Shown here in pieces: positions 1 through 5,436 of a stretch of 64,000 nucleotides of DNA (the stretch's first letter is position 1; each line of letters opens with the position of its first letter). Where the stretch lies: assembly GCF_003018235.1 (NCBI RefSeq), contig NZ_CP027437.1. The stretch is one strand, 5' to 3'. This DNA is from Escherichia coli (lineage in GTDB: Bacteria; Pseudomonadota; Gammaproteobacteria; Enterobacterales; Enterobacteriaceae). The notes under the pieces were generated by a model. That model had not been told where the DNA came from. It made no database searches and was given only the letters and a program-made list of their open reading frames with translations. A program made the translations under genes and the position numbers.

Positions 1-6
1 GATATA

Positions 7-435
7 TTATTGGTGCTTCGATTTAAAAAACTCCCAATACTTTGGAGTATATCCTTTAAATGCTCTATGTTTCCCTTTTTCATAAGCTTTCAGGAAACAT
101 TCGTAAGCCTCATCGTTTTCACCTAATTCTAGACAAACACCCCCTAAGTTAATCAGTTCAGATGTGGAATATAGTGGAATTTCACACTTAAAAATTTCAA
201 CTGCCCAGTATTTTGCCTCATTATATTTTTTAAGGTCAAAATACACACCATAAATGCAACGAATCAACCATGCAGAAACTCCATCACCAAAAGAATATTT
301 CGGCTCAGGTAAACTATCCCACAAAGAAAGATAAAGTTTTAAAGCACCATAGGCATCTCCTTGATCTTCAAGAACGTTACCATCTTCGATTTGCTTTACT
401 ATGCTTTCTTCAAGCACTGGTCTGGTACTACTCAT
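7..435 (-). CDS. Putative immunity protein for the Rhs C-terminal toxin (142 aa)
   Basis: ORF begins 73 bp downstream of the rhs stop on the same strand; AT-rich like the toxin tip; helical, Tyr/Glu/Lys-rich sequence. Position and composition fit a cognate immunity gene; family not identified. Confidence 0.5.
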   Translation of the reverse strand: MSSTRPVLEESIVKQIEDGNVLEDQGDAYGALKLYLSLWDSLPEPKYSFGDGVSAWLIRCIYGVYFDLKKYNEAKYWAVEIFKCEIPLYSTSELINLGGVCLELGENDEAYECFLKAYEKGKHRAFKGYTPKYWEFFKSKHQ

Positions 436-508
436 TGCAAGCTACTCCATATGTATAAAATGAAAATTCACATAGTTCTAACTAGCTAATATATAACAAC
501 CGATTTCT

Positions 509-3500
509 CTATTTTATGATTGGCGGTACAATTGGAGGTGTCACTGGTGGTAAGTATACTTGACCAAGTTTAGCCCCAGCAGAACGGTTAAGAGAATAAT
601 GATCCAAATAATAATTTTTTGAATCCAGCATCCAATCCCTGACAGGTTTAGACTTCGGCCCCAAAAATCTACCAGTATTATTCCACCATGTAACGGCATC
701 TGTCTTATGAGACATATCTGCTTCACTTAATGGATGCCAGACACCTTCAGAATCTTTAAACTCCATCCGGGAACCTGTCCCTCTAATTTTTCCATCATTT
801 CTCATCCGAGCAATAACCTCACGGCCTGTTCGGCTATTCTTCCCTGGGGTTCTTCCTAAGAAATCACAACGTTTTGACAGCCCTAATGGGTCAATCCACC
901 CCAGCGGATTAGGCGCATAAGCATACAGGTTCAGCCCGCCCGCCAGCCCTATCGGGTCCGTTACCATGAACCGCCCGACATCCGGATCATAGTACCTGTG
1001 CAGATTGTAATGCAGCCCCGTTTCCCTGTCGAGGTACTGTCCCTGGTAGCGCAGGTTCTGCTCCACCCCGCCGTGGTCCTTCTCCTGTATCGTGTTACCC
1101 CAGACCTGATACCCCGTCTCCCACACGATTTTCCCGTCGCTGTCCGTCATCTCTTCCGGCGCGCCGTTCACATCCGTGTGAAAATACAGTATCCGGTTCG
1201 GGCCCTCTTTACCCACCTTATCCACCCGCGCCAGCGGTTCATAACTCCCCGGGTCGCTGTAGATATACAGGCTGCTTATTCCCTCCGGCCTGCTCTCCTG
1301 CGCCAGCCGCATTCCGTCCCATAAAAATGTCGTCCGGTTGTACGGTTTACCGTCAGGGCTGATGTGCTGTTTTTCCGTCCGCCTCCCCAGCGCATCGTAC
1401 ACATACCGGTACGTTCCCCGCGCTGTCGTCACTTCCACCATCCGGTGTTCCGCATCATAACGGTAACTCTGCGTGCCGCTCCGGCCCTCCTTTTCCACCG
1501 CACGGCCAAATTCGTCGTAACGGTAGTGCACACCACGGTAAGACATCAGCCGGTTGAACGGCACCACGCTGTTTTCTGCCGTGGCCCTTTCCCCCGCGCG
1601 CCGCGCCAGCAGGTTTCCCGCCGCGTCGTACTCCCAGCTCGCCAGATACCCCTCATCCTCCGAGCGGCACGCCGTGATGCGCCCCGTGGGGTCGTAGAAG
1701 TAATCCGTTTCCCCCCGCCGGCTGTGCCGCGTCTTCAGCAGTTCATCCTCGCCGCTGTAGCTGTACTGCCGGTCCGTGAACGTCTCCGGTACCACCCCGC
1801 GCATCCCGCTGTATGTCTCCCTGCGCTTCAGCCGCCCGGCGGGGTCATAAAGCTGCCGCGTGCTCAGTCGCCCCTGACTTCTGAGCACTTCCCGGTGCAG
1901 GGCGTCACGTGTGAACTCGCTGATGACCTCCCGGTCCAGATTTATCTGCTGGAGATGGCCGCTGCCGTAGTACAGATGACGCTGCGTTCTGCCGTCCGGA
2001 AAGGAGGTGGCTGTCCGGTTGCTGAGTTCATCGTACTGATGGGTCAGGACGCCCTGCGCCGTCTCCTCAGTCAGCATCCGCCCCAGTCTGTCGTAACTGA
2101 AGCGGATAATCTCCGGTGCGTCCATTTCCCCGGCATCCGACCGTCGGCGGCGGATTTCCAGTAGCTGGTCTGCCGCATCATGGACGTATTCCGTACGGCT
2201 ATCGGCTGTCTCCTTTGCCGTGAGCCGGCCCGCCGCATCACGTGCCAGCCGGTGGCGGATTTCACCGCCCCGGTCCCCTGTGAACACCACTTCCGTGACC
2301 GCGTTCAGCACGTTGTAACGGTACGTCTGGCGGCAGCCGTCCGGATTTATCTGCTCCGCCAGACGGTCCAGCACATCATGGCGGAACCGGTAGTTTTCTC
2401 CGTTCTCGTTCGTGAGCGTGACCAGACGCCCGTAAGCATCGTACCCGAACGCCGTCCTGCGCCCCGTCGCGTCTGTCCGGCTGCGCACCCGGCCCTGCCC
2501 GTCCCGCTGCCAGCGCGTTATCCTCCCCATCGGGCTGGTGTACTTCACGAGCCTGCCCGCCGCGTCCGACTGGTAATTCACCGTGCGGCCGTCCGCCAGT
2601 ATCACCTCCGTCAGGTGGCCGCTGTCGTCATACCCGTAGCGCGTGCTGTGGCTCTGCGCGTCTGTCATCCGTATCAGCCGCGTGCGTTCGTCGTAGAACC
2701 AGGCCGTCTGCGAGCCGGAACAGTCCGTGTGCCGCATGAGCTGTCCGTCTTCGTTCCACTGAAGGTATTTATTCCCCCCGCGCGCATCCGTTATCTGCAC
2801 CACCTGACCGTGGCGGTCATACTGATACCGGGTGTTCTGCTGCAGCGGGTCGGTCACCGCAAGAAGATTGCCGCGTTCATCGTACTCACAGCACCAGCTG
2901 TTCCCCGCCGCGTCCACCTCCGTTTCCGGCTGGTGCCACACCGGGTGCCACTGTGTCTGTGCCACCCGCCCCAGCGGGTCGTGCGTCTCCGTGATATGCC
3001 CCTGCCGGTCATACACATAGCGCCATTTGCCGCCCTGCGCATCGGTCATTCCCAGTAACAGCCGTTCTTCGTCGCTCCAGCGGAACGTCGTCACCTGCCC
3101 GGCTTCGTCCTGGTACGCCGTCACCTGGTTCTGCGCGTCCCACTGATGATAACGCGTGCGCCCCAGCCCGTCCGTCACGCACAGCCTGCGTGCCGCGAGG
3201 CTCCACGCCAGCCGGTACTGTTCACCGCTGTCCGTGTGGTGCCCCGTCACCCGCCACGCTGCGTCATCCGGGCCTTCATACCAGCCCCACTGGTAATAAT
3301 ACCCTTCGCCGCCCGGCTGGCGGTGCAGGGTCATGCAGTGGTTTTCGTCGTAAGCAAACTCGCGCAGCAGGTGCCCCGTGCTGTCGTACACGCCGTTCAG
3401 GTCGCCGGCCTCGTCATAGCGGTAACGACGCAGCAGTAAAGGAGCCGTCTCAGGGAAATGCTGATAAATCTGTGTCACCCGCCGGGGATGCGCCGCCAGT

Positions 3501-5188
3501 TCATAATGCAGACGGATGCACGGACGCTGCTGTTCACCGCTGATTTGCGTGATGCGCCCCAGCTCGTCGTAGTACAGATTCAGACAGTTGCTGTTGCGGT
3601 CGCCCAGCATTTTCAGCCGCTGGTGCTGCGGGTGATGCGGGTCGGCTTCAAACAGAAAAAACTGCCCGTCATCGCTGCTGATAAGCCAGTGCCCCTGCTC
3701 ACCCCGCCGTACTGCCAGTCCTTCGCCGGGGCTGTAAAACCCGCTCCCCGGCAGCACAGCCTCCATATCCAGGCGTCGTCCCATGCCCGACACAAAGGTC
3801 ATACAGTTTTCGTCAGCAGTACCCGGCGTGCGCACGAGGCTGACTTCATACATCACGCTCCAGCCCTGCCCGAACATCCCTTCCGTGCGGTCGTCACGAC
3901 TGCTGTACACGCGCTGCCAGTCCAGCGGAAAGTGGCCCGGCAGACTGAAGTCAAAATCATCGTCATCGGCCAGATATTTGGCTCCGGTGGCGGCATTGAC
4001 CGGATGCGGAAGGGCACTGATGGCCTTCTGCGTCATCACCCCCATCCCGACACTGGCAGCAAAACAGGCGATTTTAGAAAGCATTTTGCCCGGGCGAAGA
4101 AACATCAGCGCCACGGTTGCCACCAGGGTTATCTGCGACCTGCCGCTTCTGATATCCCTGACCACCAGTAACGGACCGCCAATGCGGACATCCGGTGACA
4201 CAAACGCCCCGTTCCCCGGCTCATTCACCACCCTGGCCTCGCAGGTGCAGCGTGCCCCGCTGCGTGCCGCCGGCTGGCTGTTGATACGCACATCCCGCGC
4301 GCCTTCCGCGATATATTCCGCTGCGGGCGGTTCATCATCGCCTTTGAACAGATTACTGATGCTGCCAATAACCGCATTCACTCCCTGAAAGGCGGTTTCC
4401 AGCATACCGCCCGGACTCAGCAGGTTAAGGGCCGTTCCCAGGGGGTCATCCAGAAAGGCGGCTTTTTTTTGTGCGAGAAACTGCGTCAGTGAGGAGGGAT
4501 GTTTATGGCAGTCGATTTTATCGTCAGGGGTCGGGGTGGAGCCCGGGGCCGCACTGGCCACGGTGGGCTGCCATAGTTCCGACACAAAATGTGTCACGCC
4601 ATCCACCATTTCAGAACGCCCTTCTTCCGTACTGAGCTGGTCATGCAGCGCCCGGGACATCAGCACAGGCCCTGTCACCGGGTTAACCGCCAGGGCTATG
4701 GCCCCCGCCATTTCCAGATATTCCCCGGCCACATCCAGGAACGTTCTGGCGTCCTCCTGACGCTGCGCTTCTTCCTGTTCCGCCTTCGCCTGCGCCTCCT
4801 GCGCCTCAATGTCCTGCCGCGATGCCGCAGTCGCCGCGGCCCGCGCGGCAGGTTTGCTGTTGATCCATGTGTCGCCAGAGCCGGTGAGGATGTAACCTTC
4901 AATCTGAGGCGGGAAAAGCATATTTGCGAGGTCTGAACAGACTTCGCTGACCTTTTCTGTCACGCCGGTGTACACCATCGCCACACCCGCCACAAAACCG
5001 GTCAGCACGACGGCCGTGCACCCCATAGTGATCCCCGCTGACGTCGCCAGTAACGAGGTTGTGCCGACAATGAGGGCATCAATAACGACATTTGCGGCCA
5101 CCTCCAGCACCGCCCCCAGCACATCTGCCATAAACGACGTATGCAGCAGGGCATCACCCTGCCTTGCCGCCCAGAATGCCTCTTCCAT
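509..5188 (-). CDS. Rhs-family polymorphic toxin (1559 aa): prePAAR/PAAR N-terminus, YD-repeat shell, DPLGL boundary, variable 122-aa C-terminal tip
   Basis: ATG at 5188. N-terminus carries AARQGDALLH (prePAAR consensus AARxxDxxxH), hydrophobic stretches at residues ~23-75, and PAAR tetrapeptides at residues 113-116 and 306-309. Many YD repeats (YRYDEAGDL, YQYDRHGQ, YGYDDSGHL). Core ends PNPLGWIDPLGL; the last 122 aa (nt 512-877) are AT-rich. Confidence 0.9.
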   Translation of the reverse strand: MEEAFWAARQGDALLHTSFMADVLGAVLEVAANVVIDALIVGTTSLLATSAGITMGCTAVVLTGFVAGVAMVYTGVTEKVSEVCSDLANMLFPPQIEGYILTGSGDTWINSKPAARAAATAASRQDIEAQEAQAKAEQEEAQRQEDARTFLDVAGEYLEMAGAIALAVNPVTGPVLMSRALHDQLSTEEGRSEMVDGVTHFVSELWQPTVASAAPGSTPTPDDKIDCHKHPSSLTQFLAQKKAAFLDDPLGTALNLLSPGGMLETAFQGVNAVIGSISNLFKGDDEPPAAEYIAEGARDVRINSQPAARSGARCTCEARVVNEPGNGAFVSPDVRIGGPLLVVRDIRSGRSQITLVATVALMFLRPGKMLSKIACFAASVGMGVMTQKAISALPHPVNAATGAKYLADDDDFDFSLPGHFPLDWQRVYSSRDDRTEGMFGQGWSVMYEVSLVRTPGTADENCMTFVSGMGRRLDMEAVLPGSGFYSPGEGLAVRRGEQGHWLISSDDGQFFLFEADPHHPQHQRLKMLGDRNSNCLNLYYDELGRITQISGEQQRPCIRLHYELAAHPRRVTQIYQHFPETAPLLLRRYRYDEAGDLNGVYDSTGHLLREFAYDENHCMTLHRQPGGEGYYYQWGWYEGPDDAAWRVTGHHTDSGEQYRLAWSLAARRLCVTDGLGRTRYHQWDAQNQVTAYQDEAGQVTTFRWSDEERLLLGMTDAQGGKWRYVYDRQGHITETHDPLGRVAQTQWHPVWHQPETEVDAAGNSWCCEYDERGNLLAVTDPLQQNTRYQYDRHGQVVQITDARGGNKYLQWNEDGQLMRHTDCSGSQTAWFYDERTRLIRMTDAQSHSTRYGYDDSGHLTEVILADGRTVNYQSDAAGRLVKYTSPMGRITRWQRDGQGRVRSRTDATGRRTAFGYDAYGRLVTLTNENGENYRFRHDVLDRLAEQINPDGCRQTYRYNVLNAVTEVVFTGDRGGEIRHRLARDAAGRLTAKETADSRTEYVHDAADQLLEIRRRRSDAGEMDAPEIIRFSYDRLGRMLTEETAQGVLTHQYDELSNRTATSFPDGRTQRHLYYGSGHLQQINLDREVISEFTRDALHREVLRSQGRLSTRQLYDPAGRLKRRETYSGMRGVVPETFTDRQYSYSGEDELLKTRHSRRGETDYFYDPTGRITACRSEDEGYLASWEYDAAGNLLARRAGERATAENSVVPFNRLMSYRGVHYRYDEFGRAVEKEGRSGTQSYRYDAEHRMVEVTTARGTYRYVYDALGRRTEKQHISPDGKPYNRTTFLWDGMRLAQESRPEGISSLYIYSDPGSYEPLARVDKVGKEGPNRILYFHTDVNGAPEEMTDSDGKIVWETGYQVWGNTIQEKDHGGVEQNLRYQGQYLDRETGLHYNLHRYYDPDVGRFMVTDPIGLAGGLNLYAYAPNPLGWIDPLGLSKRCDFLGRTPGKNSRTGREVIARMRNDGKIRGTGSRMEFKDSEGVWHPLSEADMSHKTDAVTWWNNTGRFLGPKSKPVRDWMLDSKNYYLDHYSLNRSAGAKLGQVYLPPVTPPIVPPIIK

Positions 5189-5206: not shown

Positions 5207-5436
5207 TTAATTCGTCCCGGCTTCCTGCCGCATCCTGAAGCGCAGATTCTTTTTAATTTCAGCCCAGCGCGTCATATCTGCCGGGGTCAGCGGTGTGGTT
5301 CTGGCGTAGGTGAAGGCCATCATGACCCGCTCACCCGGCAATACAAATGCCACCTGACACTGGTACACCTGCTCGTTACCCCGGAGAAACTGGCTCTGTA
5401 TTTGCAAACCGCCTCATTGAGATAATATTCCGTCAT
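5207..5436 (-). pseudogene. Disrupted short ORFs immediately upstream of rhs; possible remnant of an effector-associated chaperone gene
   Basis: A 66-aa ORF (5207-5407, TTG start) ends 19 bp before the rhs start. An ATG at 5436 with an upstream AGGA opens a different frame that stops at 5320. No intact ORF of chaperone size. Assignment is positional inference only. Confidence 0.2.

Follow-up and report, generated by a model that had tools for sequence, protein, structure and literature searches.

The open reading frame at positions 7..435 (minus strand) of the 64,000-nucleotide stretch of Escherichia coli DNA analyzed here (the window) is highly likely to encode the cognate immunity protein (RhsI) of the PAAR-Rhs toxin tip encoded immediately upstream, and it would act by direct 1:1 binding of the tip's predicted nuclease. 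We infer this binding and neutralization from conserved gene linkage, charge complementarity, and structure prediction. A preliminary description of the DNA had named this ORF as a candidate cognate immunity gene; the proposal now has computational support from the adjacency of the two genes, their pairing across phyla, their exchange as a single module, their opposite charges, and AlphaFold2 (AF2) docking.

Organization of the rhs locus

The rhs ORF (509..5188, minus strand, from the ORF list) encodes a 1559-aa PAAR-Rhs protein. Its delivery part (881..5188, minus strand; GC 0.618) comprises a prePAAR-like motif, a PAAR motif, a YD-repeat shell, and a core end reading DPIGLAGG... The PAAR_motif profile matched with an E value of 1.5e-5, and the N-terminal segment AARQGDALLH, with a weak Pfam match, may represent a prePAAR motif. 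The toxin tip (509..880, minus strand; 372 bp), i.e. the 123 aa after ...DPLGL plus the stop codon, starts directly after the core motif PxxxxDPxGL of the YD-repeat Rhs, the core ending at window positions 878-880; we describe it as GH-E-like HNH/EndoVII.

A DcrB/Eag-type chaperone gene normally precedes PAAR-Rhs effectors of this class. In the window, a remnant of such a gene is found at 5207..5407 (minus strand), consisting of its last 66 codons. The product is 97% identical to residues 85-150 of an intact 150-aa DcrB-family protein encoded in a related locus (L001), and the chaperone gene before the window rhs is thus 5'-truncated. The equivalent gene in NZ_CM149870.1 is annotated by PGAP as a partial pseudogene. 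No ORF large enough to be vgrG was found between rhs and kdpA, and none is adjacent to rhs. Because the Eag/DcrB chaperone gene is truncated and vgrG is not adjacent, the window's Rhs toxin may lack delivery from its own locus, in which case the immunity gene would serve mainly against the toxin of neighboring cells. kdpFABCDE and ybfA, which flank the locus, share 99% identity with their counterparts on E. coli chromosomes, and rhs is therefore placed in the kdp/ybfA-ybgA/phr slot, the rhsC-type locus.

The immunity gene (142 aa plus stop codon; ATG at 435..433, stop at 9..7) follows on the same strand after an AT-rich spacer of 73 bp (436..508, minus strand; GC 0.288) that separates the rhs stop from the immunity start, just as first described. 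Its start is unambiguous because an in-frame stop lies two codons 5' of the ATG; a GGAG Shine-Dalgarno match is located at 448..445, 9 nt before the ATG. No terminator-like sites were found in window 1..1500, and the one weak promoter-like match (minus strand, 544..516) is a consensus match only. The low GC that had been noted as common to the ORF and the toxin tip is real, with values of 0.357 and 0.422, respectively, versus 0.618 for the Rhs core and 0.520 for the whole window. Likewise, the product fits its earlier portrayal as an acidic, aromatic-rich, helical protein: it has a pI of 5.1, a net charge of -5.3, and 16% aromatic residues, and it is all-helical in the AF2 model.

Close homologs of the immunity protein fall into 13 clusters (137-143 aa, 45-76% identity) from E. 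coli, Salmonella, Enterobacter, and metagenomes, among which the C-terminal half is nearly invariant. The ratio dN/dS for the ORF is 0.08-0.30 against five homologs, the least saturated pair giving a dN of 0.062, a dS of 0.577, and a ratio of 0.107. These homologs and ratios rule out a chance or spurious ORF and establish 7..435 as a real gene. Purifying selection is seen on the toxin gene as well as on the immunity gene.

The toxin tip resembles GH-E nucleases

The toxin tip is basic, with a pI of 10.0 and a charge of +9, and it has more than 50 homolog clusters at 48-92% identity. Some of these homologs are annotated at NCBI as "GH-E family nuclease", others as "HNH/ENDO VII family nuclease"; a homolog from JGI bears the name "filamentous hemagglutinin". 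The window tip gave no match to Pfam GH-E (PF14410) even at E<=10 and no family match in Pfam, NCBIfam, or PADLOC; a PDB sequence search with the tip, used alone and as a profile, returned nothing meaningful and no solved relative. Among 33 aligned members of the tip family, Pfam GH-E matched 5 at E<=1e-3 and 14 at E<=0.1, with a best value of 2.3e-6. We call the tip GH-E-like and not a GH-E member because the PF14410 profile test failed on the window sequence.

Several residues are invariant in the tip family, namely H58 (in the motif D-M-[SAG]-H), D61, N67, N89, and N98-R99-S100. All of them are intact in the window, so protection from the toxin would be needed. In the tethered AF2 model described below, the tip forms two strands (residues 48-50 and 54-58) followed by a helix (residues 62-73), and this modeled strand-strand-helix order is the beta-beta-alpha arrangement of His-Me finger nucleases (beta-beta-alpha-metal finger). 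Zhang et al. 2012 give the conserved residues of GH-E as GH, E, N, and E. Taken together, sequence and model portray the tip as a putative divergent GH-E-like HNH/EndoVII nuclease outside the Pfam GH-E family proper. A Foldseek search with the tethered model returned TPR (tetratricopeptide repeat) matches only and thus gave no independent assignment of a nuclease fold. The modeled fold of the tip would predict a DNase. The one tested GH-E (PF14410) toxin in a review's listing, YqcG of Bacillus subtilis, is given there as an RNase, hence the substrate of the tip clade may be either DNA or RNA.

The tip and the downstream gene form an exchangeable cassette

In the closest complete E. coli genome, the Rhs of NZ_CM149870.1 occupies the same slot and is 96.5% identical to the window from position 5400 down to 888. 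Past window 888, NZ_CM149870.1 shows no detectable similarity and carries instead an unrelated tip, a 146-aa hypothetical gene, and a SymE gene. Tip and ORF are swapped as one unit relative to locus L021. Similarity to other E. coli rhs genes ends at window 878-888, and the drop in GC from 0.62 to 0.42 and 0.36 coincides with this breakpoint. From the shared breakpoint at 888 it follows that the toxin tip and the immunity gene are one AT-rich exchangeable cassette, swapped by recombination at the conserved Rhs core end. The earlier suggestion that the two had moved together as a module is therefore borne out by their replacement as a unit at the same slot, with a breakpoint at ~888. The cassette also persists in the form of orphan cassettes.

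Tip and ORF (window 1..880) are absent from 5,426 complete RefSeq E. coli genomes searched with megablast and blastn, in which the Rhs core alone was matched. An identical immunity protein is encoded on 32 contigs from draft, GenBank, and metagenome assemblies. The tip/immunity cassette is a rare allele at a common locus.

Linkage in enterobacterial loci

We retrieved 13 loci for six of the 13 close immunity clusters and searched them by tblastn with the tip, the ORF product, and the Rhs core end. In all 13 loci, the immunity homolog lies directly 3' of a homolog of the window tip, on the same strand, and starts 5-73 bp after it. The paired toxin/immunity identities to the window are 100/100, 81/71, 81/66, 78/55, 73/50, and 70/44%; the Salmonella homologs have 78-81% identity for the toxin and 55-76% for the immunity protein. 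Pairwise identities of toxin and immunity correlate (r=0.94, Mantel p=4e-4), the immunity protein diverging faster. Such co-divergence would arise in a cognate pair and likewise in any two neighbors that are inherited together. Homologs outside an Rhs or toxin context, which the preliminary description had cited as evidence that would speak against its proposal, appeared in none of the loci examined.

The tip and immunity genes are carried by a full-length Rhs in the window and in L004, and they occur as orphan copies in L001, L002, L006, L007, and L010. The orphan cassette of L001 lies behind an EndoU-tipped Rhs in a vgrG-DcrB-rhs locus, L006 and L007 are Salmonella arrays in which cassettes are interleaved with SymE genes, and L009 is an Enterobacter locus with a tip-immunity pair. 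As a separate observation, small SymE-family type I toxin genes recur in the E. coli and Salmonella arrays (L001, L006, L007, and L021), where they separate one Rhs tip/immunity cassette from the next and have the opposite orientation.

The window ends shortly after the immunity stop, and the first description had left further orphan cassettes beyond this edge out of sight. They are present in related E. coli loci, ~140 bp after the immunity stop. In L004 (3530..5600), and in the same way in L002, L003, and L005, the sequence corresponding to the region beyond the left window edge holds an orphan Rhs-tip/immunity cassette, which starts about 137-140 bp past the immunity stop with a remnant of the Rhs core end (DPxGL region, 85% over 27 aa). 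The remnant is followed by an orphan 110-aa tip ORF and an overlapping 118/121-aa ORF, presumed to be its immunity gene, then by what appear, judged from translations, to be fragments of a broken H-repeat/ISAs1-type transposase, and finally by ybgA and phr. In L002 (GCA_017767305.1, 1..12000), the upstream amino-acid permease gene and 39-aa ORF resemble, by gene order, E. coli ansP-yncH, the flank of rhsE. Downstream, the L002 cassette is bordered by ybgA and phr, as at the rhsC-type locus. With an rhsE-like flank on one side and an rhsC-type flank on the other, this strain may have undergone a chromosomal rearrangement or deletion mediated by rhs.

Predicted TPR fold of the immunity protein

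The AF2 model of the immunity protein, computed from a 13-sequence alignment, has a pLDDT of 93.7, a pTM of 0.87, and seven helices. Its architecture is that of three TPR repeats with a C-terminal capping helix, the helices being paired antiparallel and arranged in a right-handed superhelix. Foldseek against the PDB gave TM scores to 1elr, 1na0, 2wqh, and 3kd7 of 0.62-0.69 when normalized by query length and of up to 0.85 by target length; the matched proteins include HOP TPR2A, the designed CTPR3, Sec72, and the type III secretion system (T3SS) chaperones PcrH and IpgC, at 13-22% sequence identity. In the AlphaFold database (AFDB), a 395-aa protein annotated with an Imm33 immunity domain shows the same fold over 128 columns.

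At the level of sequence, the family profile matched consensus TPR proteins over positions 14-116 with an E value of 6e-14. The window protein alone matched Pfam TPR_1/TPR_2 below threshold (E ~0.007, a single repeat, residues 94-119), and 21 of 27 immunity-family members matched Pfam TPR_2 at E<=0.1. On this evidence, the immunity ORF product is modeled as an acidic protein in which a capping helix follows three TPR repeats. TPR is a generic protein-binding fold.

A profile search against immunity families had been proposed as a check in the preliminary description. It returned no match in Pfam, NCBIfam, or PADLOC, the matches being to TPR only and sub-threshold. No curated immunity family was hit by the immunity protein in the Pfam, NCBIfam, and PADLOC scans, and none of the Pfam immunity families, including SuFu, ankyrin, and SUKH, was matched by the window protein or its ~26-27 relatives, for which TPR families alone were found. 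In all sources searched, relatives are named "hypothetical" or "tetratricopeptide repeat protein", and no source searched for homologs names the family as immunity.

A wider TPR family and its two-paralog form

An exhaustive profile search yielded 845 representative clusters at E<=1e-3, of which 119 reach E<=1e-10, all of these labeled only "TPR protein" or "hypothetical". Many members, at ~140-150 aa, are matched over their full length, whereas proteins of ~290 aa contain two copies. The genomic contexts of distant members were sampled protein by protein, and the three that could be placed are all in polymorphic-toxin contexts. The first (L014, 2..634) is adjacent to an Rhs fragment in which the repeat region is joined directly to the final 26 residues of a GH-E-like tip (...FEQNYYLGHFSINRSQGAKLGEIYRSPVP). 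This deletion removes the catalytic part of the tip and leaves the downstream TPR immunity gene intact, which therefore behaves as an orphan immunity gene. The second lies behind an Rhs with an HNH-type tip and a SUKH gene, and the third, which is paired in tandem with another copy, follows a gene for a protein matching WHH faintly and a DUF7716 gene.

We also performed the reverse look-up, starting from tip homologs of Chryseobacterium, Rhizobiaceae, and Bacillus; a fourth tip, truncated and unannotated, was found on a B. cereus megaplasmid. Two genes that match the immunity-family HMM, with E values of 1e-14 to 1e-25, immediately follow each of these four tips. The Rhizobiaceae tip belongs to a PAAR-DUF4123 T6SS cargo effector. 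The tip-immunity pairing thus also occurs in Bacteroidota, Alphaproteobacteria, and Bacillota.

This wider pairing bears on the reading that the ORF is a non-cognate orphan immunity gene directed against a different toxin, its adjacency to the tip being a coincidence of cassette stacking. Orphan cassettes do stack in Rhs loci, and distant family members do lie behind other HNH-type toxins with SUKH or DUF7716 genes. However, direct adjacency to the tip clade was found in 13/13 loci of the closer homologs and in 4/4 non-enterobacterial loci, the divergences of the two proteins are correlated, and tip and ORF share one recombination boundary, so that we consider a chance neighborhood highly unlikely and retain the ORF as the probable cognate immunity gene of the tip.

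Outside the enterobacteria, two tandem TPR paralogs follow the GH-E-like toxin (L016, 3384..4246; L017, 3561..4453; L018, 3343..4192; L020, 2561..3417). Type A, to which the window protein belongs, has a C-terminus of the form ...RAF..KY..FY, and type B ends in ...LEG..IF.D.D.KYF; the two occur in either order, and fused two-domain proteins of ~290 aa exist, e.g. P0076 and P0081. The enterobacterial Rhs-linked cassettes contain type A only. The 118-aa ORF beyond the window was considered as a type B paralog and rejected, having no match to the family HMM and being part of a separate orphan cassette. In the Bacillus locus L018, the gene after a canonical Pfam GH-E gene belongs to the SUFU family and not to the TPR family.

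Given the two TPR paralogs outside the enterobacteria, one copy may not be the whole story. The tandem or fused occurrence of types A and B suggests a two-part immunity complex outside the enterobacteria that would have been reduced to one subunit in the Rhs-linked version. We tentatively propose that the ORF could be the enterobacterial single-copy form of an unnamed, multi-phylum TPR immunity family dedicated to one GH-E-like nuclease clade, a generalization that we hold with well under even confidence. By analogy with the peptide binding of HOP-type TPRs, one may further speculate that the extended, invariant tail at the C-terminus of the toxin (NRSxGAxLGQxYLPP) is held in the TPR groove.

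Predicted complex and proposed mechanism

In order to model the pair, we joined the tip to the ORF product through a 30-residue Gly/Ser linker and used a 57-row alignment of paired and unpaired homologs. The resulting tethered single-chain AF2 model, computed for the cognate pair only, has a mean pLDDT of 86.5 and a pTM of 0.79, and the five models score 83-86. Both domains are mostly above pLDDT 90, and the linker is below 50. If only the larger domain were placed, the pTM could not exceed 142/295 = 0.48; because 0.79 is above this ceiling, the model asserts a defined interface. The confident placement of both domains is supporting evidence for the predicted docking of tip and immunity protein, and the charges of toxin (pI 10.0) and immunity protein (pI 5.1) are complementary.

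In the mechanism that we propose, the TPR protein would bind the nuclease domain 1:1, both in the producer and in sibling cells receiving the toxin. The bound TPR module would block the active site of the nuclease or its nucleic-acid-binding face, and this block of catalysis or of substrate binding would prevent self-intoxication. Characterized nuclease toxin-immunity pairs in these systems generally act by direct binding. Protection could in principle be indirect, through shielding of the target or turnover of the toxin and with no stable inhibitory complex; the confident placement of both domains by AF2 and their complementary charges speak against this, no result favors it, and we judge such a mode of protection highly unlikely.

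The docking would also fit a toxin-specific chaperone or adaptor that stabilizes the Rhs tip or helps to load it for secretion, in the manner of the TPR class II chaperones of T3SS, and the structural neighbors of the immunity protein do include the T3SS chaperones PcrH and IpgC (TM 0.65-0.70). Nevertheless, the pairing of tip and TPR gene held across Rhs/T6SS loci, a PAAR-DUF4123 cargo effector, Bacillus toxin arrays, and Bacteroidota, and such a variety of delivery contexts argues against a helper specific to one secretion system. Chaperone-type genes also sit upstream, DcrB/Eag-family genes before Rhs genes and DUF4123 before the Rhizobiaceae effector, whereas the TPR gene is downstream of the toxin, is found within orphan cassettes, and outlives a toxin degraded to 26 residues, as immunity genes do. 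On the downstream position, the orphan cassettes, and the retention beside degraded toxins, we rejected a secretion chaperone as very unlikely and favor an immunity protein that would act by binding the tip.

Discussion

An Rhs tip with a downstream antidote is an ordinary arrangement, and the combination of a PAAR-Rhs-GH-E effector with a TPR immunity protein has already been predicted in Salmonella; the added interest is modest and lies in the unnamed, multi-phylum TPR family and its two-paralog form. For the window, the toxin tip, its immunity gene, and the boundary of the module are now assigned, which completes the annotation of the Rhs effector locus. On a wider view, small proteins so far named "TPR" or "hypothetical" are connected with immunity to a clade of GH-E-like nucleases that spans Rhs/T6SS and PAAR-cargo effector contexts as well as Bacillus and Bacteroidota loci. 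A dedicated family profile would improve the annotation of polymorphic-toxin loci and immunity islands, and the toxin-immunity pair is a tractable target for biochemistry. As none of the 5,426 complete RefSeq E. coli genomes searched has the module, it could serve as a rare weapon and shield that discriminates between strains.

The folds closest to the immunity protein, i.e. HOP TPR2A (1elr), CTPR3 (1na0), PcrH, and IpgC, share with it three repeats and a capping helix at TM 0.6-0.8 over ~130 residues, but they differ by their low sequence identity (13-22%) and their unrelated biology. The C-terminal motif R-A-F-x5-K-Y-W-x-F-F is a signature of the immunity family's own alignment.

Repeat-protein immunity has precedents in the Sel1-like, ankyrin, and HEAT families. 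PMC7216683 cites the Sel1-like-repeat proteins PA5087/PA5088 as immunity proteins against T6SS phospholipase D effectors. Solenoid immunity proteins (PA5087/PA5088, Imm-ank, and Imm-HEAT) resemble the window protein in being alpha-helical repeat proteins that inhibit toxins by direct binding, but they differ from it in repeat type and in the class of toxin.

In the survey of Zhang et al. 2012, Tox-GH-E is paired only with Imm-SuFu and Imm-ank, and TPR repeats are fused to multi-immunity proteins. The window pair has in common with canonical GH-E toxins the GH-E clade of the His-Me finger superfamily and an immunity gene directly downstream; the differences are that canonical GH-E toxins have SuFu or ank immunity in place of the TPR module found here, and that the window tip is below Pfam GH-E detection.

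The islet genes SPC1575 (Rhs fragment) and SPC1576 (TPR) of Salmonella Paratyphi C (PMC7400221), compared by description only, may be the same module as the tip and immunity gene of the window. A 2024 survey of Chilean Salmonella (PMC11669294) predicted in silico a 1,566-aa PAAR-RhsA-GH-E effector, FA1443_1959, whose gene would be co-transcribed with that of a TPR immunity protein, FA1443_1960. This pair, from Salmonella Albany, is located in the SPI-6 T6SS island and was likewise compared with the window by description only; like the window pair, it combines a PAAR-Rhs protein of ~1560 aa that carries a GH-E-type tip with a small TPR protein encoded directly downstream. The window pair differs in occupying the E. 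coli kdp/ybgA (rhsC-type) slot, where vgrG is not adjacent and the Eag chaperone gene is truncated. FA1443_1959/1960 is very probably the Salmonella counterpart of the window module.
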